From: Nitrospirota bacterium
GTDB lineage: Bacteria > Nitrospirota > Thermodesulfovibrionia > UBA6902 > JAJYJJ01
Direction of reading: 5' to 3'
DNA length: 64,000 nt
NCBI GenBank assembly: GCA_021789595.1
Contig: JAJYJJ010000004.1
Span: 66,617 to 130,616, forward strand
Below are positions 2 to 57,989 of the stretch, in pieces. The notes beneath the pieces are model-generated. The model was not told the origin of the DNA, searched no databases, and worked only from the letters and a program-made list of their open reading frames with translations. Position numbers and translations under genes: made by a program. Numbering within the stretch: position 1 is the first letter of the stretch; every line of letters begins with the position of its first letter.

Positions 2-169
2 ATAAAAAGATCGATAATCAAACTGCTTAGGTCATACGAAGAGGTAGATGAAAATATAAGGAAAAAGTTGCAGTCCTATTCGAAAAAAATCGTTGAAGGC
101 AGCCCTGAATGGGATGTCCTCTACCAGAAGTTCTTACATGAAGAGGAGGCGAAAAGGGGCTTTGAGTGA
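2..169 (+). CDS. 3' end of an upstream gene of unknown function (C-terminal fragment ...SPEWDVLYQKFLHEEEAKRGFE*)
   Basis: Open frame runs from the window edge to a TGA at 167-169. There is no recognisable domain. The stop overlaps the GTG start of the next gene. Confidence 0.3.
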   Translation: MKRSIIKLLRSYEEVDENIRKKLQSYSKKIVEGSPEWDVLYQKFLHEEEAKRGFE

Positions 170-2190
170 GCTGGAGTTCTGTATCCCCCTATAATAATCC
201 TTTTGCAAGGTATATCTTCCCACTAATCATCCTATCCCTGTATTCAGGGTTTATCCTTAAGGTTCCTGAACGGTTCCCCTATCCATGGATGGTTATAACA
301 GGTATTACAGCCATCCTCGCGGTAACAGCCTATTTGATAAATAAAGGCAGGTCATTCAGGCCGGAGCTTTACCTTCTTTCCTCCGTCTTCCTATGCCTTG
401 GCACAGTTATAAACATGGTAGGGAAGCCTTGGCTGCCATGGGCATATATCCCTGTTGCAGCTATTATAGCTGTCGTCTTCAACCTGAGGGTTATCCCTCT
501 GTCCTTTGTACTGATTACAATCCTTAACAGGGGAATCCCCTATAGATGGGAAAGGGCAGAGGCTGCTGTGTTTTATGCATCCTTGCTGATATTGCCCTTT
601 GTTATATCCGGGTTTCTCAGCGCAGAACGCAAGAAAAAGGAGGGATTTCAGAGAGACCTTGATCGCATAAAGGCAGAGGCTCATGGGCTTGATATGCATG
701 GAGATAGGGCGCTTGGCTCATTTATTGATGAAAGACATCTTTCACACCTTGTCAGTTCAACGCTTGAGCTTGACAGCGAGCTTACAGAGATTGTTGAACT
801 TGTTGGCATATCCACATCGTCTGATTTTTCAGGTTATTTTTTCTATGAGGGCGATTCCCTCGTTCTCAAGGCATCTTCAGGAAGGTCTTATCCAAAAAAC
901 AGGATCCCGATAGGCGAAAGCTACCTGTCCCTTATTGTGAAGGGAAGGATACCTGTATTGCTTTCAGGATTAAAGGGCAGGCCATTTAATCTCGGTTATG
1001 ACAACACATCTGAGATAAGTTGCTTTCTCGGCGTTCCTGTCCTCGACAGTGGTCTCATTTATGGCGTCCTTGCAATAGACAGTTTAAGGGACAATGCCTT
1101 TGGCGACAGGGAAAAGGATGTCCTTAATCTCTTTGGAAGGCAGATAATCCAGGCACATAAGAGGGCGTCAATACATAGCCAGATAGACAGTTCTGCAATG
1201 GGTTTTAAGGCACTCTACGAGGCGACCTCTGAGCTTAGCTCTGCGGAGTTGAGATTCTCCGATATAACAGAGAAGATTGTTTCCATAGCAGCAGAGATTG
1301 CTCAACCATGCTGTGTTGTGCTGTTTCTTGTTAAAGGCAATGGCCTTGAGGTGGCATCGAAGGTTGGCCTTGATATAAAGGATAAGGAATATACAGCAGA
1401 CGGAACCCTGCTTGAGTGGATAATAAGTAACAGGCAGTCCCTCACTTTTTCTGACATGGCAGAGAAGGATAGGAAAATATTCCCCTTTAAGGTCAAGGAT
1501 ATGAAGTCATTTCTCGGCTTACCATTGACATACGAAGACGAGGTCATTGGAATCCTTACGGTTTTATCGCAGCAGGCAGGGGCATTTCGTTATCAGCAGA
1601 GCCATCTCCTCGGCATCCTCACCAACCATGCTGCAATAGCCCTTGCAAATGCGAGGCTTCACCTCGAGGTAAAGAGGATTGCAATAACAGACGGCCTTAC
1701 AGGGCTTTTCAATCACAGACATTTCCAGGAATGCCTTCAACAGGAATTTGAGCGTCTTGGGAGGTTTTCAGAGCCACTCTCGCTTATGCTTCTTGACATC
1801 GACCATTTTAAAAAGGTAAATGATACATATGGCCATCCTGCTGGAGATGCTGTATTAAAGGGTATTGCACAGATACTCAGAGCAACCTTGAGGGCGGTGG
1901 ATATCCCTGCAAGATATGGCGGCGAGGAATTTGCCGCTATACTTATAGGGACAGACTCTTCAGGCGCAAAGAACATGGCGGAAAGACTCAGAAAGACTGT
2001 TGAGAAGACCGTTTTTCCTGTAGATGGAAGGCCGCTGAAGGTGACGATGAGCATAGGTATATCGAGCTATCCGTCAGATGCCAGGAAAAAGGAAGAACTC
2101 ATTGAAAAGGCAGACCAGGCGATGTATCATGCAAAGAAAAGTGGCAGAAATCATAGCTATCTCTGGAGTGAGATAAGCAGAGAGTCATAG
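166..2190 (+). CDS. membrane-anchored diguanylate cyclase (N-terminal TM helices, GAF-like domains, C-terminal GGDEF)
   Basis: GTG start at 166. Hydrophobic N-terminus. C-terminal GGDEF signature 'RYGGEEFAAIL' with an upstream 'DIDHFKKVNDTYGH' motif typical of diguanylate cyclases. Confidence 0.85.
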   Translation: MSWSSVSPYNNPFARYIFPLIILSLYSGFILKVPERFPYPWMVITGITAILAVTAYLINKGRSFRPELYLLSSVFLCLGTVINMVGKPWLPWAYIPVAAIIAVVFNLRVIPLSFVLITILNRGIPYRWERAEAAVFYASLLILPFVISGFLSAERKKKEGFQRDLDRIKAEAHGLDMHGDRALGSFIDERHLSHLVSSTLELDSELTEIVELVGISTSSDFSGYFFYEGDSLVLKASSGRSYPKNRIPIGESYLSLIVKGRIPVLLSGLKGRPFNLGYDNTSEISCFLGVPVLDSGLIYGVLAIDSLRDNAFGDREKDVLNLFGRQIIQAHKRASIHSQIDSSAMGFKALYEATSELSSAELRFSDITEKIVSIAAEIAQPCCVVLFLVKGNGLEVASKVGLDIKDKEYTADGTLLEWIISNRQSLTFSDMAEKDRKIFPFKVKDMKSFLGLPLTYEDEVIGILTVLSQQAGAFRYQQSHLLGILTNHAAIALANARLHLEVKRIAITDGLTGLFNHRHFQECLQQEFERLGRFSEPLSLMLLDIDHFKKVNDTYGHPAGDAVLKGIAQILRATLRAVDIPARYGGEEFAAILIGTDSSGAKNMAERLRKTVEKTVFPVDGRPLKVTMSIGISSYPSDARKKEELIEKADQAMYHAKKSGRNHSYLWSEISRES

Positions 2191-3248
2191 ACATCATCCA
2201 CTGAGATCTCTTTCAGACATCTAACACCGGTCTTACACCTCGGAGTATAGCCAAATTTTGTGCATGGGCTGCAGGGCAGATGCCTGTTTATTGTTACATG
2301 CCTTTTGTCTCTTGGGGCCCATTTTTCCTCGATGCTAGAGCCAAAAAGGCAAACAGTTGGAGTGCCTACACCATAAGCAATGTGCATTATTCCAGAATCA
2401 GCAGTAATCAGGGCAGATGAATTAGCAATTACAGCCGTTGTCTTTAAGAGGTCTGTCCTGCCGACAAGGTCTAATACACGGCTGTTTATCAAAACGATCC
2501 TTTCTGAATCCCGAAGCTCTGCTTTGCCGCCAATGAGTATCACTTTATATCCATCATTAGAGAGCCTCATGGAAAGCTCGGCAAATCTATCAGTGCCCCA
2601 TCTTTTTTCCATCACAGATGCCCCTGTGAATATTGTGACCACATCCTGCCTCTGTGCCTCTATGGTATTTTTCGCCCATGAGTTTATGTTCTCTGGGACA
2701 CGGATGAACGGCTCATCAGGATTAAAGTCTCCTGCAGGACCCAAGAGAGGGCCGATCAGGTTTAAAAAACTGTATACCTCATAGTCAGAATGACTGTATG
2801 GAATCTTATGTGTAAAAAGCCTCTCACGCTCATTGGTTGCAAAGCCTATCCTTACAGGCGCCTTTGTGAGATAGGCAACAACAGCAGAAAGCCTGTGCCA
2901 CTGCTCTGTATCAATGACTACATTGTATTTGTTTTTGAGGCATCTAAAAATGTCAAACCCTCTGTCATAAAGATAAATTTTGTTTATAGAATTTGAAAGT
3001 CTGAATATGTCTGCATTTCTTTTTTCAGCGAGGATGTCAATAGATGTGCCTGGAAGATTCTCTTTTAGCGTCTGAATTGCAGGCAGAAGAAGCACCGCAT
3101 CGCCGATGCCGCCAGGGCGGATGATGATAATGCGATTTATATTTCCTACAGTATTTTTGGAGGCATAGATAAATCGTATTAAGCTAATCAGTAAGGGTCC
3201 AAAGATTGCATCTAATATCTTTAATGCCTTATTATTCTTGAAAGTCAT
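2157..3248 (-). CDS. glycosyltransferase family 9 (ADP-heptose:LPS heptosyltransferase-like)
   Basis: 'RIIIIRPGGIGDAVLLLPAIQTLKENLPG' N-terminal motif characteristic of GT9 heptosyltransferases. The ORF track begins at a TTG at 3317. The internal ATG at 3248 avoids overlap with the upstream gene and is preferred. Last gene of the pilin/glycosylation operon; its 3' end is convergent with and overlaps the GGDEF gene by 34 nt. Confidence 0.7.
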   Translation of the reverse strand: MTFKNNKALKILDAIFGPLLISLIRFIYASKNTVGNINRIIIIRPGGIGDAVLLLPAIQTLKENLPGTSIDILAEKRNADIFRLSNSINKIYLYDRGFDIFRCLKNKYNVVIDTEQWHRLSAVVAYLTKAPVRIGFATNERERLFTHKIPYSHSDYEVYSFLNLIGPLLGPAGDFNPDEPFIRVPENINSWAKNTIEAQRQDVVTIFTGASVMEKRWGTDRFAELSMRLSNDGYKVILIGGKAELRDSERIVLINSRVLDLVGRTDLLKTTAVIANSSALITADSGIMHIAYGVGTPTVCLFGSSIEEKWAPRDKRHVTINRHLPCSPCTKFGYTPRCKTGVRCLKEISVDDVYDSLLISLQR

Positions 3249-3276
3249 TTTGTAATAAGATAATAAATGTGTATAA

Positions 3277-4323
3277 TTAGTGATAAAATTTTTTGACTTC
3301 GAGCAAGGCAGCCTCAAATTTTTCTTTACTTTTCCTTATGTCGAATTGTTTTGCAGTTTCATAGGCATTATGCAAAATCCTTGAATCAATAATCCTTGAA
3401 TTTATTGTTTCCGAGATTTTTTTAACTAATCCCTTATCATCGCCGATAGGAACAACAATTGCATTATACCCATCAGTAACATATGGGACTGCAGGAGTTG
3501 TTATAACTAAGCAGCCGCAGGCCATAGCCTCAAGAGGGAACAAACCAAATCCCTCGTAGCGCGAGGGGTAAAGGAAGATGTCAGCACTGCTTAATATTCT
3601 TCGCATAACATTATCTTCTGGAGAACCGAGATATCTTGTTGTGCATGGTAAGATATTGTTATATAGTTCATCGCCGCATACCCATACCTCTAATCTATCC
3701 TTAAAATCTACACATAGCTTCTTAAGGACATTGATTGTAATATCAAAACCTTTTCTGTAATGATCACCTCTTGAGAGGATGAATATCGATTTCCTTTCTC
3801 CTTTCTGCTGTACCAAATCAGGGTCGGGGTCACAATAAAACTTATCCATATCTATGCCAGTAGTAGCCGTTATAACTTTTGTTGCGCCATAGTTATCCTG
3901 GAGGGTCTTACTTAATACCTCAGAGTCAGAGATAACACACCCTTTCTTTAACCGTAAGAAAATGAAATATAGCATTTTAATAAGTAATCTAACAAACCTG
4001 TTTTTATAGTACTCAGTATCGTGGGCCTGGGCAAGATAAATGACATTATTTCTCACCCCAACAAACAGGGAAAGATGTATGATGTCTACGATAACAATAT
4101 CCGAATCGAAATCTTTGATTAATCCATATAGCAATGTCCCTATCCTTGTTGGCAATGGTATATGGTTTAGTTCGACTGAGGGATTTATATCAAAGATTGT
4201 ATCAAATTTATCGATATAGAATTTAACCTCATGCCCCCTGTCAACAAGATAATTAGCATATTCAATTACTACCCTATCCCCTCCACGATTCAATAGAGAA
4301 TACCTTATGAATGATATTTTCAA
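3277..4323 (-). CDS. glycosyltransferase family 4 (GT-B, retaining)
   Basis: C-terminal 'EGFGLFPLEAMACGCLVITT' motif typical of GT4/GT1 glycosyltransferases. 348 aa. Confidence 0.8.
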   Translation of the reverse strand: MKISFIRYSLLNRGGDRVVIEYANYLVDRGHEVKFYIDKFDTIFDINPSVELNHIPLPTRIGTLLYGLIKDFDSDIVIVDIIHLSLFVGVRNNVIYLAQAHDTEYYKNRFVRLLIKMLYFIFLRLKKGCVISDSEVLSKTLQDNYGATKVITATTGIDMDKFYCDPDPDLVQQKGERKSIFILSRGDHYRKGFDITINVLKKLCVDFKDRLEVWVCGDELYNNILPCTTRYLGSPEDNVMRRILSSADIFLYPSRYEGFGLFPLEAMACGCLVITTPAVPYVTDGYNAIVVPIGDDKGLVKKISETINSRIIDSRILHNAYETAKQFDIRKSKEKFEAALLEVKKFYH

Positions 4324-4357
4324 TATCTTATCCTCCTATATTTTTCCCATTTCCACG

Positions 4358-5212
4358 TTATTTAGAGTAGATAATTATAGCTAATATTATAATCCACAAT
4401 GATATTGTTGTGGCCAATTGCCTATCTCGGTATATCGCCTCTGTAGGGTCGCCTAACCCTGTTTTTGAGAGCAATATGTATCTAAAAAGCCCAAAGGTTA
4501 TGATGGGGATTGTATAGAATAGACCTTTTGGTTGTTCTATTGAATATAGGCCATATGCGATGAGAGAGGCTGCTCCTGAGATCCACAGGATACCGTCAAG
4601 AAAGCCTGCAGGGTATGATTTAATGCCCATTCTGTGGGCCTCAGGATTTGCATTTATGCTACGGGTCTCACCAATCCTTTTCCCTGCTGCCAGCAATAGA
4701 GAAAGCAGAAAGATACTCAAGAAAAGCCATTTTGATATCTCGATATTAAAGGCTGCTCCTCCTGCCATAACACGGATCACAAAGCCAGAGGCAATGGCAA
4801 ATATATCTAAAAGCACTATGTCTTTAAGGTAAAAGGAATAACAGAGCTGTAGGACAAGATATCCGAACAGATATAGGGCAAATATTTTAGAGACATTGAG
4901 TCCGATAATCACCGATGACACAAAAAGCATGCCTGCGAGGATATGGGCATCTCCTAAAGAAACCTTGCCTGAGGCTATTGCCCTGTTCTTTTTTTTCGGA
5001 TGATTTCTATCAAAGGGCATATCCTTAATATCATTGATTATGTAAGATGCACTTGCCATAAATGAAAAGGAGGAAAATACCGGTATGAATCGCAGGATTA
5101 TTTCGGTGTCGAGTATCTTACCGGCGAAGAAAGGTGCTGAGAATACAAGGAGATTTTTTATCCAGTGTTTCGGCCTGAGGAGAGACAGATAATCACTAAT
5201 TCTTTGTTTCAT
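4358..5212 (-). CDS. UbiA-family prenyltransferase, decaprenyl-phosphate phosphoribosyltransferase-like (polyprenyl-phosphate pentose synthase)
   Basis: Multi-TM protein with an NDxxDxxxD motif ('INDIKDMPFDRNHPKKKNRAIASG') typical of Rv3806c/UbiA-like 5-phosphoribosyl-1-pyrophosphate:polyprenyl-phosphate transferases. Confidence 0.7.
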   Translation of the reverse strand: MKQRISDYLSLLRPKHWIKNLLVFSAPFFAGKILDTEIILRFIPVFSSFSFMASASYIINDIKDMPFDRNHPKKKNRAIASGKVSLGDAHILAGMLFVSSVIIGLNVSKIFALYLFGYLVLQLCYSFYLKDIVLLDIFAIASGFVIRVMAGGAAFNIEISKWLFLSIFLLSLLLAAGKRIGETRSINANPEAHRMGIKSYPAGFLDGILWISGAASLIAYGLYSIEQPKGLFYTIPIITFGLFRYILLSKTGLGDPTEAIYRDRQLATTISLWIIILAIIIYSK

Positions 5213-6932
5213 TCAGTCTCTTTATCAGTTTTCTTGCGGGGTTTGAGAAATATTCATTCGGGGACAATTCAATTGCCTTTTTAAAGTATTCAATTGCCCT
5301 TTTTTTCTCTCCGAGGGCTAAATAGAATTGGCCTGTTCGATATAGATAAAGACCATTCCTGTCAATATCATAGAGCTGCTTTAGGTAGGAGATAATCTCC
5401 GTGTAGAATCGCTTCTGTTTATCCAGGTTCTTTTCTTCCATGAGTTGATTCTCAGTGATCTTTATAACCTTCTGGAGTATCTCTACGGATAGCTGAGGGG
5501 TTGGTTTTTTCTCTAAGAGCCGTAGATACTCCTCTTTTGCCTCTTCAGGCTTCCTTTGCATTGATAAAGTTATGATGTTCATGGACGGCACTTCTTTATA
5601 CTTCACATTTCCTGCAAGCCTTTTAGCTATCCTAAACTGTTCTGATGCCTCTTTGACCTTCCCATTCCTCAATAAGGTAAGACCATAATCGTTTCTTGCT
5701 GCGGCAAAATTTGGAGACTTTTTGACTGTATCTGAGAACAGTGTAAGGTTGCTCTGCCAGACAATATTGCGGTTTACTGTTATTGCAGCAGATGCTATCA
5801 ACAGGATTGCTAATGCCCCGTATATTAGTTCTTTTTTCCACGGTATGCGGTTAATCAGCAATACTATGAGAACAGATACCCCGAAGCTTGATATATAGAG
5901 GTATCTCTCTGCCAACGGAGTCCATGCCATCTTTGACAGGGCAACAGGGATTGCTACTATAAAAAATGGTATAGAAGAGAGGAAGAGGAATGATGATAAT
6001 GTCCTTCGTCTGAGGAATAGATATAGGGCAACCACCGAGGCAATTATTCCAAACCAGAAATAAAGTGTTCTGTTTATCTCTATAATGCCGAAATTAAGGG
6101 GAAGTGGTATGAAGAGCTTCTTGATGTAAAAGCCAAATGCCTTTATGGCACCGCTGATGCTTATTAGGAGACTGCCATTATCTACAGCCCTTGCTGCTGT
6201 TTCAACCCCTGTATCAGCGATATAACCGGAGGCAATGGTTCGCATCAGAAAATATACAGCAGTCATGAACAGAAAAGGAAGAAAAAGCCTGAACCGCCTC
6301 TCAATAACAATGTCTTCGATATGTCGTTCCTTTAAGATAAGGAATAATCCAATTACAGGCAAAAGCCCTATGGCAACCTCCTTTGAGAGAAGTCCCATAA
6401 GATATAATAGAGCAGATATCCAGCACCAGAGGTCATTTTCTATCCCTTTTTTAAGGAAGACCAGAAAAGACATAAATACAAACATCCCTGCAAGCACATC
6501 TGTCCTTCCTGAAATCCAGTTCACAGGCTCTGTATTTACAGGATTGATGATAAAAAATATAGAGGCGAGCATCGGGATATATGGATCAGCAGCAATCCTG
6601 AATATCCTTAACAACTCTTTAACTATGAAAAAGATTAGAACACCATTTGCTGTATGAATAAGCATATTATTAAGGTGCATAAAGGATGCACTGCAGTCAA
6701 ACACGAACCTGTCGAAGAGAAAGGTCAGCGCCAGTAGCGGGCGGTAATAATAGATGGGGTTTCCTGGGAAGAAGATACCCTTCCAATCTACATGATAGGT
6801 ATTCAGTAGGTTTGTTATCATCATGTGGTCATCGACAGTATTGACCTGCCCAAATATAGACGGGTAATACACACCGAGAGAGATGAAGATGATGAACAGG
6901 ATCTTGTATCTGTCAGAAAGCTCAGTCCTCAT
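5196..6932 (-). CDS. GT-C fold membrane glycosyltransferase with C-terminal TPR repeats (TMTC/PMT_2-like; TfpW-like candidate protein O-glycosyltransferase)
   Basis: N-terminal multi-TM domain (about 400 aa) with a first-loop 'VDDHMM' acidic motif and 'YYYRPLLALTF...HLNNMLIHTANGVLIFF' (DUF1736/TMTC-like pattern), followed by TPR-like repeats ('ALGEKKRAIEYFKKAIELSP'). Overlaps neighbouring genes by 11-17 nt, so it is operonic. Confidence 0.6.
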   Translation of the reverse strand: MRTELSDRYKILFIIFISLGVYYPSIFGQVNTVDDHMMITNLLNTYHVDWKGIFFPGNPIYYYRPLLALTFLFDRFVFDCSASFMHLNNMLIHTANGVLIFFIVKELLRIFRIAADPYIPMLASIFFIINPVNTEPVNWISGRTDVLAGMFVFMSFLVFLKKGIENDLWCWISALLYLMGLLSKEVAIGLLPVIGLFLILKERHIEDIVIERRFRLFLPFLFMTAVYFLMRTIASGYIADTGVETAARAVDNGSLLISISGAIKAFGFYIKKLFIPLPLNFGIIEINRTLYFWFGIIASVVALYLFLRRRTLSSFLFLSSIPFFIVAIPVALSKMAWTPLAERYLYISSFGVSVLIVLLINRIPWKKELIYGALAILLIASAAITVNRNIVWQSNLTLFSDTVKKSPNFAAARNDYGLTLLRNGKVKEASEQFRIAKRLAGNVKYKEVPSMNIITLSMQRKPEEAKEEYLRLLEKKPTPQLSVEILQKVIKITENQLMEEKNLDKQKRFYTEIISYLKQLYDIDRNGLYLYRTGQFYLALGEKKRAIEYFKKAIELSPNEYFSNPARKLIKRLNETKN

Positions 6933-7905
6933 TTGCGATCTCGGTAAATAGTTCCTCGAGCCCTTTCCTTACAGGCTCAATCATCTGTATGGATGTCTCT
7001 TTATCCTTTATGACTTCAGACAAGACAGATTCCAGATCCTCCTGTTTTATAATACATGTTGAAAATAATCCCCCCTTGCCTCCCTTTACTAAAAGAGGGG
7101 AGGGGGAATTATCAGGTGAAAAATCTTTAGTTAGCTCTATATCTTCACTTATAGTTTTAAAGAAATTTGCCATATGTCCGGATATAGTGTTGAATGTCAG
7201 AAGGTAGCCTTTGATCCCCTTTGCCATTATGTCCCTTATGGATTCTACAAGCCTGAGCTCTCCTTTTACAATAATCCCAACCCTGTCGCATATTGTCTCT
7301 ATGTCATTCAATATATGGGTGGACATAAATACGCATTTGCCTTTAGACTTTAGATCAAGGATTATGTCCCTGACAAGGATTCTTCCTATAGGGTCAAGGC
7401 CGCTCATCGGTTCGTCCAGTATAAGAATATCTGGGTCATGGATAAGACATTGGGCAAGCCCCAATCTCTGCACCATGCCTTTTGAATAGCCCTTTATCGG
7501 CCTTTTCCTTGCATCATAGAGGTCAAGCAGTTTCAAAAGCCTATCTGAACCTTCAAGAATCGCATCAGCGCTCATCTTAAATGTCCTGCCGACAAAGGAA
7601 AGAAGTTCCTCGCCTGTTAGATAATCATAGAAGCTCGGATTTTCTGAAAGATAACCAGCCATCTTTTTATAACTTAATGATGTCCCTGCAATTCCATTGA
7701 TATAGAATTCTCCTGATGTTGGATAGATAAGGCCCATAAGGAGCTTGATGGTTGTAGTTTTCCCTGCACCGTTTGGCCCAAGAAAGCCAAATACTTCTCC
7801 CTTCTGAACATCGAGGTTCAGGTCTTTGAGTGCATCCACATGTTTGCCTTTTTTACCCTTATATGTTTTACTCAGGCCTTCTGTCTTTATTGCTGTGTTC
7901 AACAT
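6922..7905 (-). CDS. ABC transporter ATP-binding protein (ABC-2 exporter ATPase) with a C-terminal extension
   Basis: Walker A 'GPNGAGKTTT', signature 'YSKGMVQRLGLAQ', Walker B 'ILILDEPMSGLD'. Likely start at internal Met 'MLNTAIKTEGLSKTY' (7905) rather than the ORF-track start at 7953. Confidence 0.85.
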   Translation of the reverse strand: MLNTAIKTEGLSKTYKGKKGKHVDALKDLNLDVQKGEVFGFLGPNGAGKTTTIKLLMGLIYPTSGEFYINGIAGTSLSYKKMAGYLSENPSFYDYLTGEELLSFVGRTFKMSADAILEGSDRLLKLLDLYDARKRPIKGYSKGMVQRLGLAQCLIHDPDILILDEPMSGLDPIGRILVRDIILDLKSKGKCVFMSTHILNDIETICDRVGIIVKGELRLVESIRDIMAKGIKGYLLTFNTISGHMANFFKTISEDIELTKDFSPDNSPSPLLVKGGKGGLFSTCIIKQEDLESVLSEVIKDKETSIQMIEPVRKGLEELFTEIANED

Positions 7906-8746
7906 TCCCTCCAAATGCAAATTTGCTCGTTGTCCGTATTTCCCCCTTTTCACTTATGTAAAATCTTCCTCCATAAGGGTCTTCAGGTATCTTTTTTATT
8001 ATACCTTTATCAGTCAGTTCTTCGATGTTCGATGGTTTACGGTGATAAAGCTCTTCAAACTTCTTTTCTCCTTTTTCTAAAAAGGCGACAGCCTCAAGTG
8101 CCTTCAGCCTAATTTCGAGTGTCTGCTTGACCTTTTGATTCCATGTCTTATCTATCATGAACTTCAGAAAGGAGATGGCAATCCCTGTCTCATCGGATTC
8201 GTATAAAAACCTTGCAGCAAGATTGGTATAGAGCGAGTCGCCTGTGATCCTTGCTGCCTGTTCCATATATTGAGCCGCCTTCTTATAGTCCTTTAAAAAA
8301 TAAAAGTTATTAAACCCTAAAAAAAATGGCAGATAGAAATCCCATGTCCTGTATTTAAGTCCCCTTTCAAGCAGATAATCCACTTCTTTTATCCTCCCAA
8401 GTCCCCATGTAAAGACTGCCTCTGAGAAATAGTAGGAGTCTATGTTATATGGGTCTATGTATGTTGATGCATCGAGGAATCTATACATATTGAAGTATTC
8501 TATATCCTTTTTAGCAAAGGGTTTTTCTGTGTCAAACTTGCCGCCGTAGTATGTAATTACCTTAAAGAACAGCCACTCGCTTATAAGTGGCTTATACTCC
8601 ATGGCAGCAATCCGCAGAATCTGCTTTTGCGGCAGGTAGCCGAGCTTTTCCTCAGCGGGTTTTCCTGAGATATAGGATATTAGCCTACCGTAGATAGGGA
8701 TAATCAGTATTAAAGAGGCAAGCATTACAGCAATAATTCTTTTCAT
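7868..8746 (-). CDS. hypothetical membrane-anchored or secreted protein
   Basis: N-terminal hydrophobic segment 'MKRIIAVMLASLILIIPIY'. No recognisable catalytic motif. Sits between the pilin and the ABC ATPase in the same operon. Confidence 0.45.
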   Translation of the reverse strand: MKRIIAVMLASLILIIPIYGRLISYISGKPAEEKLGYLPQKQILRIAAMEYKPLISEWLFFKVITYYGGKFDTEKPFAKKDIEYFNMYRFLDASTYIDPYNIDSYYFSEAVFTWGLGRIKEVDYLLERGLKYRTWDFYLPFFLGFNNFYFLKDYKKAAQYMEQAARITGDSLYTNLAARFLYESDETGIAISFLKFMIDKTWNQKVKQTLEIRLKALEAVAFLEKGEKKFEELYHRKPSNIEELTDKGIIKKIPEDPYGGRFYISEKGEIRTTSKFAFGGNVEHSNKDRRPE

Positions 8747-8773
8747 AAGGTTTTATGGGTATAATAATAGATA

Positions 8774-8992
8774 TTATGGATATTCCAGATAGTCAGCATA
8801 ATACCATTCCATCATTGCCTTTAAGTTCCTCAAGTCGCTTTGAGCTGCTGCATTATATGCCTTCATTTTATAAGACGAAAACATAGGTAATGCAATTGCT
8901 GCAAGGATAGCTATGATTGCTATGACAACGAGCAGCTCTATGAGAGTAAAGCCCTTATTCCTAAAATTTTTACTATTAGGAGATGTAGACAT
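8774..8992 (-). CDS. pilA: truncated type IV pilin, Geobacter PilA-N (e-pilin)-like, paralog 1
   Basis: Prepilin leader and cleavage/methylation site 'NKG|FTLIELLVVIAIIAILAAIALP'. The mature part is about 58 aa, with about 15% aromatic residues. Strong similarity to the Geobacter PilA core ('FTLIELLIVVAIIGILAAIAIPQF..YRVKAYNSAASSDLRNLK'). Confidence 0.85.
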   Translation of the reverse strand: MSTSPNSKNFRNKGFTLIELLVVIAIIAILAAIALPMFSSYKMKAYNAAAQSDLRNLKAMMEWYYADYLEYP

Positions 8993-9010
8993 GATTTCCC
9001 CCTTCTGATT

Positions 9011-9772
9011 TCACAGCAACTCCCTTCTTCTAAATATAAGGACTGAGATCCCAAGGACTATTATAATATAAAGTATTGCGTATGAAAGGACAGTGAGCAT
9101 ATAAGCAGGAGAGGTTGGAAGGCTGTATATGGCATTGAACTTAAAGTCGAGGGCGGTTAGATTTGGAAAGATATAATAAGCGGTCTTCGATAGATAGATG
9201 CTTGGTGAAGGCAGTTTTGTTCCATGAGGGCTGTTTATGTAATCCATTACAGCCTGTGTCACATTGCCAATGATATAGACCCCCACGGTTGCAAATAGGG
9301 GGAGAAACAGGTTTGTGGAGAAGGATGAGAAAAGGATAGATGCGGATGCTACGATGATTAATGCAATAAATTCAAAAAAGACTGCTGCTATAAAGTTCTC
9401 ATAGGACATCGGGATAGATGATTGATAAAGTCTTGATGCTATTGTTATGCCAATAAGAGAAAAGGCAGAGAGGATGGCAACACCAGAGCCTATAATACCA
9501 GAAAGCCCTAAGAATTTCCCGAGGATAAATGCCTCCCTCGATACAGGCATGGATATAACAGGGTGAGCAAACCTCCTTTCCATATCCCTGTAAACAAGGT
9601 TTACACCGAGGAATATCGTCAGGATAAGGGATACGAATGAGATTATGGAGAGCGATAGGCCGACAGACACCTCTCGAGGTTGTCTCATAGATAAGGAGCT
9701 TATTGCAGGGACAAGGATGATAAAACATAGTATAGAGACCGCTAACAGGGTAATAAATACCTTATCCCTCAT
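9011..9772 (-). CDS. ABC-2 family transporter permease
   Basis: About 6 predicted TM helices, size and hydropathy of ABC-2 permeases. Start placed at internal ATG (9772, 'MRDKVFITLL') because the ORF-track start at 9844 would overlap the upstream terminator hairpin. Confidence 0.7.
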   Translation of the reverse strand: MRDKVFITLLAVSILCFIILVPAISSLSMRQPREVSVGLSLSIISFVSLILTIFLGVNLVYRDMERRFAHPVISMPVSREAFILGKFLGLSGIIGSGVAILSAFSLIGITIASRLYQSSIPMSYENFIAAVFFEFIALIIVASASILFSSFSTNLFLPLFATVGVYIIGNVTQAVMDYINSPHGTKLPSPSIYLSKTAYYIFPNLTALDFKFNAIYSLPTSPAYMLTVLSYAILYIIIVLGISVLIFRRRELL

Positions 9773-9819
9773 GCCGCCTTTAAATGTTATCTTTGCTATC
9801 TCTAAAATAATAACCACCT

Positions 9820-9848
9820 GAAAAAGAAAAGGGGTCGTTGCCAACCCC
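9820..9848 (-). terminator. rho-independent terminator downstream of the pilA-N/pilA-C-like pair
   Basis: Minus-strand hairpin GGGGTTG-GCAA-CGACCCC (7 bp stem, GNRA loop) followed by TTTTCTTTTTC, 26 nt after the stop of the PilA-C-like gene. Confidence 0.55.
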
Positions 9849-9873
9849 TTTTCTAAAGCTTATACTGGATTGA

Positions 9874-10215
9874 CTATAGTGAGTTCCAACCACTAAATGC
9901 CGCTGAAGTACTCACGCTCGGCGAGGCTGATATATTTGTCCCTGTAGTCGCAGCTGTCCAATAGATAGTAGTGGAGTCTGCAGATACGCCAAACTCCCTG
10001 TCTCCATTAAGATGTTTTGAGACCGCTGCATAATGCGTGGTATCATCTATGACGTAAACCTTCACATTGCGTGATGCCTGAAATGTCTGGGAACTACCAG
10101 GGAATGTTATGGTTGTCACATCTGTGCTACTATTCCAGGTACCACCAGCGGCAAATGCTATTGCCGCGCCTAAGGCAAAACTCAATGCAATTACGAGTAT
10201 AATTATCTTCTTCAT
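9874..10215 (-). CDS. small secreted Ser/Thr-rich protein, candidate PilA-C-like partner of the short pilin
   Basis: ATG at 10215 preceded by GGAGG. Signal peptide 'MKKIIILVIALSFALGAAIAFAAG'. The mature part is about 90 aa and Ser/Thr-rich. Starts 13 nt after the pilin stop, mirroring the Geobacter pilA-N/pilA-C arrangement. Confidence 0.5.
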   Translation of the reverse strand: MKKIIILVIALSFALGAAIAFAAGGTWNSSTDVTTITFPGSSQTFQASRNVKVYVIDDTTHYAAVSKHLNGDREFGVSADSTTIYWTAATTGTNISASPSVSTSAAFSGWNSL

Positions 10216-10228
10216 ATCAACCTCCTTT

Positions 10229-10447
10229 TTATGGATAATACTGGAAGTCAGCATAATATGCTTCCATTGCTGTCTTGAAGTTCCTCAGGTCGCTCTCTGC
10301 GGCTGAGTTATATGCCTTTGTCCTGTATGCTGCAAACTGTGGTATTGCAATTGCAGCAAGGATGGCTATAATCGCCACGACCACGAGGAGCTCGATAAGG
10401 GTAAAACCCTTTTCATTGCCCTTCATACGATTGATTGTCTTTAACAT
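10229..10447 (-). CDS. pilA: truncated type IV pilin, Geobacter PilA-N (e-pilin)-like, paralog 2
   Basis: 'NEKG|FTLIELLVVVAIIAILAAIAIPQFAAYRTKAYNSAAESDLRNFKTAMEAYYADFQYYP' is near-identical in its core to Geobacter sulfurreducens PilA. 10 of 58 mature residues are aromatic. Strong GGAGGAGG ribosome-binding site. Confidence 0.85.
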   Translation of the reverse strand: MLKTINRMKGNEKGFTLIELLVVVAIIAILAAIAIPQFAAYRTKAYNSAAESDLRNFKTAMEAYYADFQYYP

Positions 10448-10597: not shown

Positions 10598-10613
10598 AGC
10601 AGATTCCATGCCA
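10598..10613 (-). promoter_or_regulatory. candidate sigma54 (-24/-12) promoter upstream of pilA paralog 2
   Basis: Minus-strand TGGCAT-GGAAT-CTGCT. GG and GC elements are at canonical spacing (consensus TGGCAC-N5-TTGCW), about 150 nt upstream of the pilin start. Geobacter pilA is RpoN/PilR dependent. Confidence 0.3.
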
Positions 10614-10828: not shown

Positions 10829-11503
10829 ATGATACCTTACAAGGATGACAATCCCACATCCCATTTCCCGTTTGTAACAATAGCCATTATCCTTATAAAC
10901 AGCATTGTCTTTTTCCTTGTCCCATCCTCAGGGGAGGCAGGAAAAGAGGCGGTGTATGCCTATGGCGCAATACCAATCTATATAATGAGCTTTCAAGGGG
11001 CACAGCCCATTCATCCCTTCCTTACGGTCTTTACATCCATGTTCATGCACGGCAGCATCCTTCATCTCCTCGGCAATATGCTTTATCTCTGGATATTCGG
11101 GGACAACATAGAGGACAGGCTCGGCCATGTGAGATTTATAATCTTTTATCTCATCTGCGGGATTGTCGCTGCTTACAGCTATGCAATAACAGACCCGGCA
11201 TCAAAGATCCCGATGATAGGTGCAAGCGGCGCCATATCAGGTGTTTTGGGCGCATATCTTCTCCTGTTTCCGAAGGCAAAGGTTCACGCCTTGATATTCC
11301 TCGGATTTTTTGTTACGGTCATCAAGATACCTGCGATTCTTGTAATTGGATTCTGGGCTGTGATACAATTCTTAAGCGGCCTTCTGAGCACAGGGCTTCA
11401 TGCCCAGGGTGGCATTGCCTGGTTTGCCCATGTTGGTGGATTTTTGTGGGGTCTTATTACCATAAGGCTGTTTATGATGAGGAAAAGGAGGTATAACTGG
11501 TAA
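10829..11503 (+). CDS. rhomboid family intramembrane serine protease
   Basis: Catalytic 'GASGAISGV' (GxSG) and 'AHVGGF' histidine motif in a 6-TM protein. Confidence 0.85.
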   Translation: MIPYKDDNPTSHFPFVTIAIILINSIVFFLVPSSGEAGKEAVYAYGAIPIYIMSFQGAQPIHPFLTVFTSMFMHGSILHLLGNMLYLWIFGDNIEDRLGHVRFIIFYLICGIVAAYSYAITDPASKIPMIGASGAISGVLGAYLLLFPKAKVHALIFLGFFVTVIKIPAILVIGFWAVIQFLSGLLSTGLHAQGGIAWFAHVGGFLWGLITIRLFMMRKRRYNW

Positions 11504-11506
11504 ACT

Positions 11507-12388
11507 ATGATTGTCCTCTGTCCAAAATGCAAAACGAAGTTGAAGGTTGCTGAAGAAAAGATATCCGATGCAGGCAGCCGTTTTAAATGCCCTAAATGCA
11601 GTACAGTCCTGCTGATTAAAAAGCCGAAAAGGCCTGCTGTTGAGGCAAAGCCCATTGATACTAACACAGTGCTTGTTGCCCATGGAAATCGTGAGATGCT
11701 CATAAAAATAGAGAATGTTGTCAAAAGGGCAGGGTATGCTGTGGAGAGGAGCATGGACGGCATTGACGCCATGGTAAAGATAGACAGGATAAAACCCTTT
11801 CTTACAATAATAGATGTCGCCCTTCCAAAGATATACGGTTTTGAGATATGTAAAAGGATTAAGAGCAGGCATGAGACAAAGGGTATAAAGGTCATCCTTG
11901 TGGCATCTATCTATGATAAAGAGAGGTATAAGCGGGAACCGCAGTCTCTTTATGACGCTGATGACTATATCGAGGGCCATCAGATTGAGAAGCTGTTGAT
12001 TGACAAGATAGGCAGGCTTTCAGGCAAGGTGCAGGCAGGTGAACTGCCAAAGGAACAACCAATGCCGCCTCAGCCGCCAGCAGAAGAAAAGCCTTATCTA
12101 CAGAAGGCAGAGGTATCAGCACCTCCTGAAATCGGTATAGAGAAGATAGAAAAGGCAAAACGCCTTGCAAGGACTATTGTCTCTGATATTACGCTTTATA
12201 ACCCGAAGAAGGTTGAAGAGGCAATAAGGAGGGGTGTGTTCTTCTCTGACTTCTCAGATGAGATAAAGGAAGGCCAGAAACTCTATGACAGCCGTATCCC
12301 TGAGGATGTGAGGGCTGTGGGGGATTTCTACAAAGAGGCCATAGGGAACTTTATAATAAAGAAAAAAAAGGCGATGGGTCTTGCCTGA
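11507..12388 (+). CDS. zinc-ribbon (MJ0042-type CxxC...CxxC) protein with a receiver-like domain lacking the N-terminal acidic pair
   Basis: N-terminal 'CPKCKTKLKV...FKCPKCSTVL' zinc ribbon. Central CheY-like fold ('TIIDVALPKIYGFEICKRIK'). Acidic/Pro-rich linker. Confidence 0.5.
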   Translation: MIVLCPKCKTKLKVAEEKISDAGSRFKCPKCSTVLLIKKPKRPAVEAKPIDTNTVLVAHGNREMLIKIENVVKRAGYAVERSMDGIDAMVKIDRIKPFLTIIDVALPKIYGFEICKRIKSRHETKGIKVILVASIYDKERYKREPQSLYDADDYIEGHQIEKLLIDKIGRLSGKVQAGELPKEQPMPPQPPAEEKPYLQKAEVSAPPEIGIEKIEKAKRLARTIVSDITLYNPKKVEEAIRRGVFFSDFSDEIKEGQKLYDSRIPEDVRAVGDFYKEAIGNFIIKKKKAMGLA

Positions 12389-44307: not shown

Positions 44308-46188
44308 ATGAAAAAATGTTTACTTCTATTAGGATTAACTTTAATCCTTCTTACACTATTATTGGAGTATGGATTCTCTGAGGAGACCGGCTCCTGCCTT
44401 CAGTGCCACAGTGATGCAAAGAAGATGAAGGAGCTTGGCTATCCAGAGTTTACCATGACACAAGAGGAGGTAGAAAAACAGACAGGTATGCCTGCAACCT
44501 GTGAGATGTGCCATCAGGGAAATCCCAATGACAATACCATCAAGGGAGCGCATAAGGGTATCTTAAGCCTATCTGTAGTCATGAAGAAGGGTGCTATTGC
44601 AGTGCCAAGGAAGGAGCTTAAAGGAGAGGACAGGGAATCTATCAAAAGCTTGAAACCAAAAGGTGATTTTGCAGGCAATACCCTTTTCCCAAGGGTAATT
44701 GGGAAGGATGGTAAGCCTGCGCTTAATCCGAGGGTGTCGGTTATCCAGTGGCATGACAAGGATCTTAACACTATTGCCTTTAATCCAGGTATTGCGGAGA
44801 AGACCTGCGGTATCTGTCATCCTAAAGAGGTCAAGAGCTACATGAAGACCGAAATGGGATTGACATTGACCATGAGCCAGTATGTGACCTGGTTCAGCCC
44901 CACAGGCCCTCAGAGCTGCGGCCTCTGGACAGCAGCCACTACAAAGCCCAGCAATGACAGCTTTACCACCGAAAATATGGAGCAATACAATGCTGTCAGC
45001 ACTGCCCATCTTGGCAAGGAACAGGCATTTTCCAACCAGAGGAATTGTAATACCTGCCATGCAGGTTGTCTGGATTGCCATTATAACCCTTTTAACAAAG
45101 AGGCAAAAGACAGTAAAGGCAGACCAAAAGAGGCAGGCGTTCATACCTTTTCCTTTAAGCCTCCGGTGCTTTCATGTATGGGTGATGGCAGGGCTCAGAT
45201 ATGTCATGCAGGCCCATTGGAAAGGCGAAGGGGAGATGGATTCATGAAAGGAAACTTTGCAGTAAAGGCTGTGGCTGACCCACAGAATGAAAATTCAAAA
45301 ATATATATCGAGACCCCTGATGTCCATTTTGCCAAAGGCATAACCTGTGCGGACTGTCATCGCCATAATCACAAGACCCATAACATGGGTGATCAGATAA
45401 GGAATCCTGAGCCCATACAGTGTGCAGAATGTCATAAGCAGGAGGTATCTGCAAATAAAAAGGGCATCCACAAGAATCTTTCCTGCGAGGCATGCCATAC
45501 CCCATTAGTGGTAGGATATGCCTTTAATTTCTGGGCACCTGGGAAAAGATTTGGCATGGAAACACCATTGGACAGGCATCAGTTTTATAATGTCAATGCA
45601 ATGCAGCCCATCATCCTTAAGAACAAGAAAGGGCAGTGGAATCCCTATCATATAGTTCCTCACATATCAACAAATGTGAAGAAAGAAGAGGTGAAGCTAT
45701 CCAAAGGACTTATATTCAGGAGCAAGCCAGATGTAAACATGAAGAGGGAGTATCCATCCAATGACGCCTTTGCCGTAACAGGAATCTATGAAGGGAGCAC
45801 CGATGAGGGCACGGTCATGGCGTGGCTGAACATCGACAAGGTTGCCCATGCCGTAACAAAGGCAAGGACATGCGATAGCTGTCATGGCTTAAATGGAACA
45901 CAGAAGATTTTAGTGGATTACAGGTGGATGGAAAAACCTGATAGTGCCTATAAGGATATCCTATCAGGCCATTACACGATTGTGTCCGATAGAAAGGGTT
46001 TGAGGATAGAGAATCTTTCAGGTGCTGATGGGAGATCTATACCTGATGGACTTAGACCTCTTGTAGGCAAGTGGGATTTAAAAGGAAACTTTTCCATCCC
46101 TCCAATAAGAGACAAAAAGGCATATGCCAGAGAAAAAGCACGATACGAAAGGATATTAGAAAGTGGTGGCAGATACCATTCGCAGTGA
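44308..46188 (+). CDS. secreted multiheme c-type cytochrome (nine canonical CxxCH sites plus one possible CX8CH)
   Basis: Signal peptide '[19 protein letters not shown]'. Heme-binding motifs CLQCH, CEMCH, CGICH, CNTCH, CLDCH, CADCH, CAECH, CEACH and CDSCH. Also '[11 protein letters not shown]'. Confidence 0.8.
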
Positions 46189-57492: not shown

Positions 57493-57813
57493 TCAGCCTC
57501 CGATGTAACCCCCGGAAACTGGCTCCTTTTCGAGCGGCTCTTTCTGCACACCTACGGAAGCTGTCCTTTCGACATCACTGGCGTACCCGGTCCAGTCAAA
57601 TGGGCAGACTTTCGTCAGTATCTCCAGCTTCCAGTCGATAAAGTTGACGATCTCGCGGAAATGTGGGATATGGGATTTCAGTATGTCCTTCTCGGACCCT
57701 GTCATCTGTTCGATTTCTGTCACAAAGCCAAGCAACCTTGACTTCATGCCGGAAAGTTCTTTGTACATTGAATCGCAGTAGTTCCTGAATCCTATGTCTT
57801 TTGCACTCACCAT
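57493..57813 (-). CDS. hypothetical protein (106 aa, no recognisable domain)
   Basis: ATG at 57813 with GGAGG 5 nt upstream. The ORF-track start at 57903 runs through the leader terminator hairpin and is rejected. Confidence 0.5.
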   Translation of the reverse strand: MVSAKDIGFRNYCDSMYKELSGMKSRLLGFVTEIEQMTGSEKDILKSHIPHFREIVNFIDWKLEILTKVCPFDWTGYASDVERTASVGVQKEPLEKEPVSGGYIGG

Positions 57814-57846
57814 AGTTGCCTCCTTTCCCTTGGCCACAAAGGCCTG

Positions 57847-57900
57847 ATAATAAAAAACCGAGCATGCCGAAGATTTCTGTGAATCCTTCGGCAACTCGGC
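57847..57900 (-). terminator. intrinsic terminator / attenuator within the 5' leader of the 57813 gene
   Basis: Minus-strand hairpin CCGAG-TTG-CCGAAGG...CCTTCGG-CATG-CTCGG followed by TTTTTTATT. Ends about 24 nt upstream of the ribosome-binding site. Confidence 0.5.
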
Positions 57901-57989
57901 CATGCTGAAACCTGTTCAGCACCCGCCGCTTTCCGCCCCCCTCTTTCGAGGGTTTAGCTTTTTCGGGAAGAGCACATCTTCTTAAAACT

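Follow-up and report, generated by a model that had tools for sequence, protein, structure and literature searches.

The 64-kb window analysed here, a 64,000-nucleotide stretch of contig JAJYJJ010000004.1 from a Nitrospirota bacterium (Thermodesulfovibrionia; assembly GCA_021789595.1), carries on its minus strand a truncated pilin gene followed immediately by a gene for a small secreted protein that resembles the PilA-C subunit of Geobacter pili. The coding sequence of this PilA-C-like protein ('geopilin domain 2' family, as identified by profile, PDB and fold searches) occupies positions 9874..10215 and runs from 10215 to 9874, TAG stop included. Both the open reading frame listing and direct reading give a precursor of 113 amino acids that starts MKKIIILVIALSFALGAAIAFAAGGTWNSSTDVTTITFPGSSQTF and ends SAAFSGWNSL. 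The identical protein is encoded on four public contigs, for which independent gene calls yield this same product, and it occurs in the metagenome-assembled genome (MAG) GCA_027414915.1. An alternative, longer in-frame start lies at 10254. We prefer the 113-residue form because the public gene calls and the homologue starts agree on it: in all but two of 40 homologues compared residue by residue, the start is equivalent to the Met of this form.

The N-terminus, read from the sequence, is laid out as a type I signal peptide, in which MKK is followed by an 18-residue hydrophobic core and by A-F-A|AGG, with Ala at -3 and -1 (in letters, MKK, IIILVIALSFALGAAIAF, A|AGG). This Sec-type signal peptide comprises residues 1-22 (MKKIIILVIALSFALGAAIAFA; 10150..10215, minus strand), and its predicted cleavage site, AFA|AGG, aligns in the profile alignment with AIA|AGK of Geobacter sulfurreducens PilA-C, the solved mature form of which (6vk9_D) has 104 residues and begins 20 residues into the 124-residue precursor. 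The prepilin motif G-F-x-x-x-E is absent from the window protein and from all 154 family members checked, which have 95-130 residues and among which we also see no fused full-length versions. An earlier note on this stretch, which did not name the strand, had described a signal peptide without the pilin N-methylation motif and a Ser/Thr-rich mature region, and both descriptions hold: the predicted mature part of 91 residues contains 15 Ser and 15 Thr, i.e., 33% Ser+Thr (30/91) compared with a family mean of 28%, and the peptide stretches quoted in the note are correct. The protein contains no cysteine and is therefore neither a lipoprotein nor disulfide-bonded.

Directly upstream lies the gene for a truncated prepilin of the PilA-N type (10229..10447, minus strand; 72 amino acids), recognized by the Pfam model N_methyl (E 1.4e-10) and by PilA-N chains in the PDB. 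Its 14-residue leader ends in KG, and the mature pilin of 58 residues begins FTLIELL and carries Phe1, Glu5 and Pro22. It matches PilA-N of Geobacter metallireducens (9egp_A, E 1.7e-27) and of G. sulfurreducens (7tgg_A, 1.9e-26; 2m7g/6vk9, 1.2e-23) in alignments that extend to its last residue, so that both proteins end at the same position. The TAA of the pilin and the ATG of the PilA-C-like gene are separated by the 13-nucleotide spacer AAAGGAGGTTGAT (10216..10228, minus strand), and the second gene has its own Shine-Dalgarno sequence, AAAGGAGG, with GGAGG placed 5 nucleotides before the ATG. Both the 13-nucleotide distance and the GGAGG had been given in the earlier note and are read directly in the sequence. 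Its description of the gene as translationally coupled stands as far as the close spacing and the Shine-Dalgarno sequence are concerned, but coupling itself is overstated, because a 13-nucleotide gap with a strong Shine-Dalgarno sequence of its own does not alone demonstrate it. What this arrangement shows is co-transcription with efficient independent initiation.

The mature upstream pilin is strongly aromatic, with Phe or Tyr at 10 of its 58 residues (17%). The literature uses a threshold of 9.8% aromatic residues for 'e-pilins'. Because a PilA-C partner is present, 'e-pilin' calls made from the short gene alone would mislead.

Family membership and fold

When 1.84 billion representative proteins are searched exhaustively with a profile, the window protein falls into a family of 513 clusters (50% identity) at E<=1e-3, 101 of them at <=1e-10, and the open reading frame is thus not a chance one. 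The best 150 of these 513 clusters are uniform in size, all of them about 100-130 residues long apart from one low-complexity false positive, and family members are annotated as coming from Thermodesulfovibrionales and Desulfuromonadaceae. Neither Pfam nor NCBIfam contains a model for the family. Eight close homologues have in common S-x-N-V, YAA-x-SKHLNG-x-R-x-[FY]-G and a C-terminal FSGW, which in the wider family are retained as the position-specific motifs S-x-N-V, Y-A, H-x-x-G-x-[RK]-x-[FY]-G and C-terminal F-S-G-W.

Profile searches of the PDB link this family to PilA-C. With a profile of eight sequences, the matches are 9egp_B, a 113-residue chain named 'Geopilin domain 2 protein' (E 2.5e-7), and 7tgg_a (1.7e-5); with a profile of 150 sequences, 9egp_B (5.8e-19), 7tgg_a (3e-13) and 6vk9_D (2e-6) are all matched over the full length. 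These three PilA-C chains are the only significant PDB matches of the larger profile, the next one having an E-value of 0.043. They belong to cryo-electron microscopy (cryo-EM) structures (9egp, 7tgg and 6vk9) of the PilA-N/PilA-C pili of G. metallireducens and G. sulfurreducens. Two candidates from Pfam and NCBIfam scans were rejected, Wzz (E 2.9e-4, residues 2-54) and ExtJ (5.6e-4, residues 1-36), both being sub-threshold matches at the signal-peptide end that we attribute to hydrophobic-segment noise.

The predicted fold points in the same direction. An AlphaFold2 model built with 40 homologues has a predicted local distance difference test score (pLDDT) of 76.4, with residues 50-113 at 86-96, and consists of four beta-strands and a short helix. 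When this model is compared with 350,542 PDB chains using Foldseek, ranks 1-3 are taken by 7tgg_a, 9egp_B and 6vk9 (probabilities 1.00, 1.00 and 0.98; template-modelling (TM) scores 0.44-0.54), and rank 4 by a full-length type IV pilin, Thermus PilA4 (probability 0.85). For a predicted model, this ranking is independent of the sequence profile and agrees with it. The earlier note had named an unrelated fold as the outcome that would speak against a pilin partner; what came out on top was PilA-C, followed by a full-length pilin.

Every defining feature of the PilA-C family that could be checked from the sequence and the model is present in the window protein. Its precursor has 113 residues, compared with 113 and 124 in Geobacter (GSU1497; 6VK9, 7TGG, 9EGP); its Sec signal is predicted to be cut at A-x-A|AG as there, its gene comes right after that of a truncated PilA-N, and it has the same motifs and the same fold in the Foldseek comparison. 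The downstream context of an ABC transporter and glycosyltransferases is likewise that of Geobacter. However, the identity in structural alignments is only 22-26%, and the host belongs to the Nitrospirota (Thermodesulfovibrionia) and not to the Desulfuromonadales. In keeping with this assignment, the Lon protease encoded in the window shares about 80% identity with its counterparts in Nitrospirae/Thermodesulfovibrionia MAGs, compared with only about 63% with deltaproteobacterial Lon. The small secreted protein and Geobacter PilA-C are truly related, and the former is hence a member of a known family, of which the size and uniformity, given that no model describes it, are modestly new.

Two other kinds of pilin help to delimit this protein. 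With one-piece type IVa pilins such as Thermus thermophilus PilA4 (6XXD), it has in common an antiparallel beta-sheet domain of the kind that would cover the alpha1 helix, but here this domain is a separate, unfused polypeptide with its own Sec signal, it lacks cysteines and hence a disulfide-bonded D-region, and the PDB profile search detects no sequence similarity to full-length pilins. Tad/Flp pilins, e.g., Caulobacter PilA, resemble the upstream partner in being very short and helical. In contrast to it, they form pili made purely of helices, without a second globular chain (PMC10710030), whereas the window pilin has the type IVa hallmarks Phe1, Glu5 and Pro22 and a PilA-C partner.

Conservation of the gene pair and its transcription signals

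We compared seven loci, the window and six divergent family members (L085, L087, L089, L091, L092 and L093), whose PilA-C-like proteins are roughly 26-50% identical to that of the window. A truncated pilin gene lies directly upstream of the PilA-C-like gene in all seven, at a spacing that ranges from a 4-nucleotide overlap to a 47-nucleotide gap, and the mature pilin has 58-60 residues in six of them and 74, as called, in L091. Downstream of the PilA-C-like gene, a multi-transmembrane protein with TPR repeats and a UbiA-family enzyme are encoded in 7/7 loci, and six of the seven have the whole series of an ABC-2 permease, a protein of about 285 residues, an ATPase, a TPR protein of about 580 residues and a UbiA enzyme of about 282 residues. 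Besides the window, the permease follows PilA-C in L087, L089, L091, L092 and L093; the exception is L085, where no permease gene intervenes, although the TPR protein and the UbiA enzyme are retained. This module, from the pilin to UbiA, stays together in Thermodesulfovibrionia-like loci as well as in loci annotated as Desulfuromonadaceae.

In the window, the genes on the same strand follow one another in the order pilin, PilA-C-like protein, ABC-2 permease, second pilin, 292-residue protein, ATPase, 578-residue protein, UbiA enzyme, GT4 and GT9. The second pilin (8774..8992, minus strand) is again a truncated prepilin of the PilA-N type with 72 amino acids, 64% identical to the first and 15.5% aromatic. 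This paralogue further down the operon distinguishes the window from the Geobacter arrangement. It sits between the permease and the gene for the 292-residue protein, without a PilA-C gene of its own; a pilin is found at the same place in L087, and L089 and L092 instead have two tandem pilins ahead of PilA-C.

In G. sulfurreducens, the xap cluster GSU1498-1508, which includes the ABC ATPase GSU1501, comes directly after pilA-C, GSU1497 (PMC3495685, PMC5585712). Because the xap cluster begins right after pilA-C there, the window locus is syntenic with the Geobacter pilA-xap region. On the other side of the gene pair, the window differs from Geobacter in having no adjacent pilB/T/C/S/R; a rhomboid protease gene and then a gene for a zinc-ribbon response regulator lie upstream on the opposite strand instead (10829..12388, plus strand, divergent from the pilin). 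These two genes stand in place of the pilS/pilR of L089 (pilR alone in L091). Directly upstream of the pair, L089 has pilT-pilC-pilS-pilR, which is the Geobacter arrangement.

Past the second gene, RNA folding reveals a terminator-like hairpin (9820..9854, minus strand) with a 13-bp stem, a 4-nucleotide loop and a following U-run. Its energy is -22.3 kcal/mol (z -3.44; one of 200 shuffles is equally stable), although a simple terminator scan did not list it. The hairpin begins 20 nucleotides past the PilA-C stop and ends 3 nucleotides short of the GTG of the permease, which suggests that the bicistronic pilA-N/pilA-C transcript is abundant and that read-through into the genes beyond is partial. 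At the other end, a pattern match identifies a candidate sigma-54 (-24/-12) promoter, TGGCATGGAATCTGCT (10598..10613, minus strand), 166 nucleotides upstream of the pilin ATG, and near-identical sigma-54-like motifs lie upstream of the pilins in L093 (-308) and L092 (-88). Because the pattern is not enriched in the window (35 found compared with 33.9 expected), this candidate promoter is only a weak lead.

A probable two-polypeptide pilin and its alternatives

With homology to PilA-C in sequence and in fold, a PilA-N-type prepilin gene adjacent to it, a transcriptional context in common with that gene and a conserved neighbourhood, the window gene very probably specifies the globular C-terminal half of a major type IV pilin made of two polypeptides, i.e., a PilA-C ('geopilin domain 2') orthologue in Thermodesulfovibrionia (Nitrospirota). 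The earlier note had proposed a PilA-C-like partner of the short pilin, and the PDB profiles, the Foldseek ranking, the PilA-N match of the upstream gene and the Geobacter-like neighbourhood all agree with that proposal. As a plausible sequence of events, modelled on the solved Geobacter filaments, in which PilA-C is the outer globular domain (6VK9, 7TGG, 9EGP; PMC10710030, PMC11046646, PMC12954529), the pilin and PilA-C-like genes would be transcribed together, possibly from the sigma-54 promoter, with the terminator-like hairpin after the second gene. The prepilin would be inserted into the inner membrane and cut after Gly14 by the prepilin peptidase, and the 113-residue protein would be exported via Sec and cut after AFA. 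The mature beta-sheet domain of 91 residues could then dock on the C-terminal part of the 58-residue pilin helix, forming a 1:1 heterodimer like that of Geobacter. Type IV pilus machinery, which would be encoded outside the window, would polymerise these heterodimers into a filament with the helices as its core and the Ser/Thr-rich PilA-C domain as its hydrophilic outer surface.

Several points weigh against this two-polypeptide pilin. The window sequence by itself, compared with the whole PDB, has 9egp_B as its top match over the full length at an E-value of 0.098, which is not significant alone, so the homology to PilA-C rests on the profiles. The support from Foldseek is moderate (E 5.6e-3 to 5e-2; TM about 0.5). 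A first AlphaFold2 model, made with eight sequences, reached a pLDDT of 39 and was discarded as unusable, and residues 23-50 of the later model are of low confidence, which may be compatible with a segment that becomes ordered only on its partner. None of the genes examined in the 64-kb window encodes pilus machinery (pilB/C/D/M-Q). Moreover, even for Geobacter the occurrence of heterodimeric pili in wild-type cells and their role are disputed (PMC9207759).

The dispute bears on a different role, in which the protein stabilises the short pilin before assembly as a periplasmic or membrane-associated chaperone and itself stays outside the filament. GSU1497 was reportedly once read as a 'short pilin chaperone' in this sense. 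Its knockout is reported, in a passage of PMC5174107 that cites Richter 2011, to abolish PilA accumulation; one group regards the PilA-N/C filament as a mutant-strain artefact (PMC9207759), and homology alone cannot tell a chaperone from a structural role. We nevertheless regard a pure chaperone as unlikely in view of three independent cryo-EM entries from two species, in which PilA-C is a stoichiometric subunit of the filament (6VK9, 7TGG, 9EGP; PMC12954529; bioRxiv 10.1101/2025.10.22.684050). The two roles are in any case not exclusive, because a half-subunit that co-assembles also stabilises its partner.

Less likely still, the protein might belong functionally with the ABC exporter and glycan genes downstream, e.g., as a secreted, glycosylated matrix or anchoring protein, with the pilin merely adjacent. 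Such a role would fit the 6/7 loci in which the ABC-2 permease, the protein of about 285 residues, the ATPase, the multi-transmembrane TPR protein and the UbiA enzyme come directly after the gene, and it would fit the link of the Geobacter cluster to an anchoring polysaccharide (PMC3495685). But the truncated pilin upstream is equally invariable, the terminator-like hairpin separates PilA-C from the ABC genes and not from the pilin, L085 keeps the pairing with the pilin without an ABC permease between PilA-C and the TPR protein, and the solved homologues are located in the pilus. We consider it barely credible that the protein is unrelated to PilA-C, a small secreted protein or lipoprotein rich in Ser/Thr whose likeness to PilA-C is compositional. 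A high Ser/Thr content can inflate alignment scores, and Pfam gives only spurious weak matches (Wzz, E 2.9e-4), largely over the signal peptide and the first residues beyond it; yet the conserved motifs are in register with PilA-C along the whole length, and the fold search concurs. The lipoprotein form of this idea is rejected, as there is no Cys for a lipobox.

A PilA-C half of a split pilin in this genome would matter beyond the locus. Split pilins have until now been regarded as a Desulfuromonadales speciality, tied to the 'nanowire' debate, and a metagenome survey concluded that truncated pilins occur only in the Deltaproteobacteria cluster (bioRxiv 10.1101/668343); here, the complete PilA-N/PilA-C pair occurs in a Nitrospirota genome. 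In the source annotations we have seen, PilA-C genes are labelled 'hypothetical protein' because they are small, lack a prepilin motif and have no Pfam or NCBIfam model, and short pilins beside such unlabelled genes risk being misread as stand-alone 'e-pilins'.

Probable glycan genes downstream and other features of the window

The genes that follow the pair encode, in order, an ABC-2 type permease of 268 amino acids with a GTG start (9011..9817, minus strand; Pfam ABC2_membrane_2, E 1.4e-8; gene call in L001) and, past the second pilin, a conserved 292-residue protein to which no function is assigned (7868..8746, minus strand; aligned with six divergent homologues). In the latter, a hydrophobic N-terminal segment and weak TPR-like matches are joined by an invariant P-x-DPYGG-x-FY at the C-terminal end, which resembles pseudopilin GspG, and three of the six homologues match Pfam T2SSG (best E 3e-4); to judge from these sequence features, the protein could possibly hold a pilin-like domain without a prepilin leader. 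Next come an ABC transporter ATPase (6922..7902, minus strand; 326 amino acids as called on public contigs; Pfam ABC_tran, E 3e-27), a multi-transmembrane protein of 578 residues with C-terminal TPR repeats (5196..6932, minus strand; PMT_2-like, of the GT-C type, via its homologues), and a UbiA-family prenyl-phosphate transferase of 284 residues (4358..5212, minus strand; Pfam UbiA, E 7.5e-25). This UbiA enzyme scores 230.7 bits against NCBIfam NF008978, decaprenyl-phosphate phosphoribosyltransferase, for which the cutoff is 207. A GT4 glycosyltransferase (3277..4323, minus strand) continues the same-strand run, which ends with a GT9 heptosyltransferase-like protein (2157..3248, minus strand). 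On the opposite strand, a GAF-GGDEF diguanylate cyclase gene (166..2190, plus strand) converges on the 3' end of this operon.

The 578-residue protein has about 10-11 hydrophobic segments and, after the first of them, DDH at residues 34-36, of which the DD (residues 34-35) is invariant in 52 homologues; its TPR matches reach E 1.5e-11. In a Pfam scan, the window protein itself has no match to PMT_2 or any other GT-C family, and a PDB sequence search with its membrane domain returns nothing. The GT-C assignment accordingly rests on the homologues, 20 of the 52 matching PMT_2 (best E 1.2e-7) and some being named protein O-mannosyltransferase by JGI.

A precedent for such an enzyme next to pilin genes is TfpW of Pseudomonas aeruginosa, a GT-C enzyme with a TPR domain that is encoded directly after pilA, arabinosylates the pilin and needs a homologue of Rv3806c (bioRxiv 10.1101/2020.04.19.049825). 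Like the group IV pilA-tfpW locus, the window encodes after its pilin genes a large multi-transmembrane protein with a DDx past the first transmembrane segment and a C-terminal TPR region, together with a clustered homologue of decaprenyl-phosphate phosphoribosyltransferase (Rv3806c type), and it offers a Ser/Thr-rich candidate acceptor. The likeness is one of architecture and gene company; the proline-rich chain-length motif Yx6PFx7P of TfpW is absent from the membrane domain of the 578-residue protein. In further contrast, ABC transporter genes here intervene between the pilin genes and the PMT_2-like protein, and the same-strand cluster (2157..10447) contains no DprE1/DprE2-like gene of the D-arabinofuranose pathway.

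The downstream genes for the ABC-2 exporter, the GspG-motif protein, the PMT_2-like/TPR protein, UbiA, GT4 and GT9 probably build or export a glycan. This glycan may decorate the PilA-C surface or form a matrix polysaccharide. By analogy with the Geobacter pilA-xap and Pseudomonas pilA-tfpW loci, O-glycosylation of the outer surface formed by PilA-C is plausible, and the linkage of the pair to a PMT_2-like/TPR protein and a phosphoribosyltransferase-like enzyme turns glycosylation of the outer half of the pili into a testable hypothesis. The Ser/Thr composition alone is weak evidence for it, because it is a family-wide trait (mean 28%) and some Ser/Thr positions fall within conserved motifs. 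More tentatively, and with the odds in our judgement against it, the conserved pilA-N/pilA-C/ABC-2/GspG-motif/PMT_2-like-TPR/UbiA module might be a dedicated pilin-glycosylation unit, in which the TPR enzyme would O-glycosylate the Ser/Thr-rich outer surface of PilA-C in the periplasm using a polyprenyl-phosphate-pentofuranose made by UbiA, much as TfpW does with D-arabinofuranose in Pseudomonas. A point against such a unit is that its Geobacter counterpart, xap, has been interpreted as an exopolysaccharide or anchoring-polysaccharide locus (PMC3495685). The literature searched contains no documentation of PilA-C glycosylation, and we found in it no paper that mentions both Geobacter and TfpW. 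In view of the conserved linkage, one may ask whether the interpretation of xap in Geobacter is correct; if the glycosylation unit were real, at least part of that 'xap' anchoring-polysaccharide locus would be a pilus-decoration system.

Elsewhere in the window, a c-di-GMP-I riboswitch (57887..57968, minus strand) scores 47.8 bits, compared with a gathering threshold of 35, and overlaps the 5' end of a 136-residue open reading frame (57903..57493) that has no Pfam match. Because of this overlap, the true start of the frame is probably an internal Met. A ComEC gene lies just upstream on the same strand (60507..58078). The window also encodes a secreted multihaem cytochrome c of 626 residues (44308..46188, plus strand) with nine CXXCH motifs and Cytochrome_C7 matches, which may have a bearing on extracellular electron transfer, the genome having a split pilin of the Geobacter type as well.

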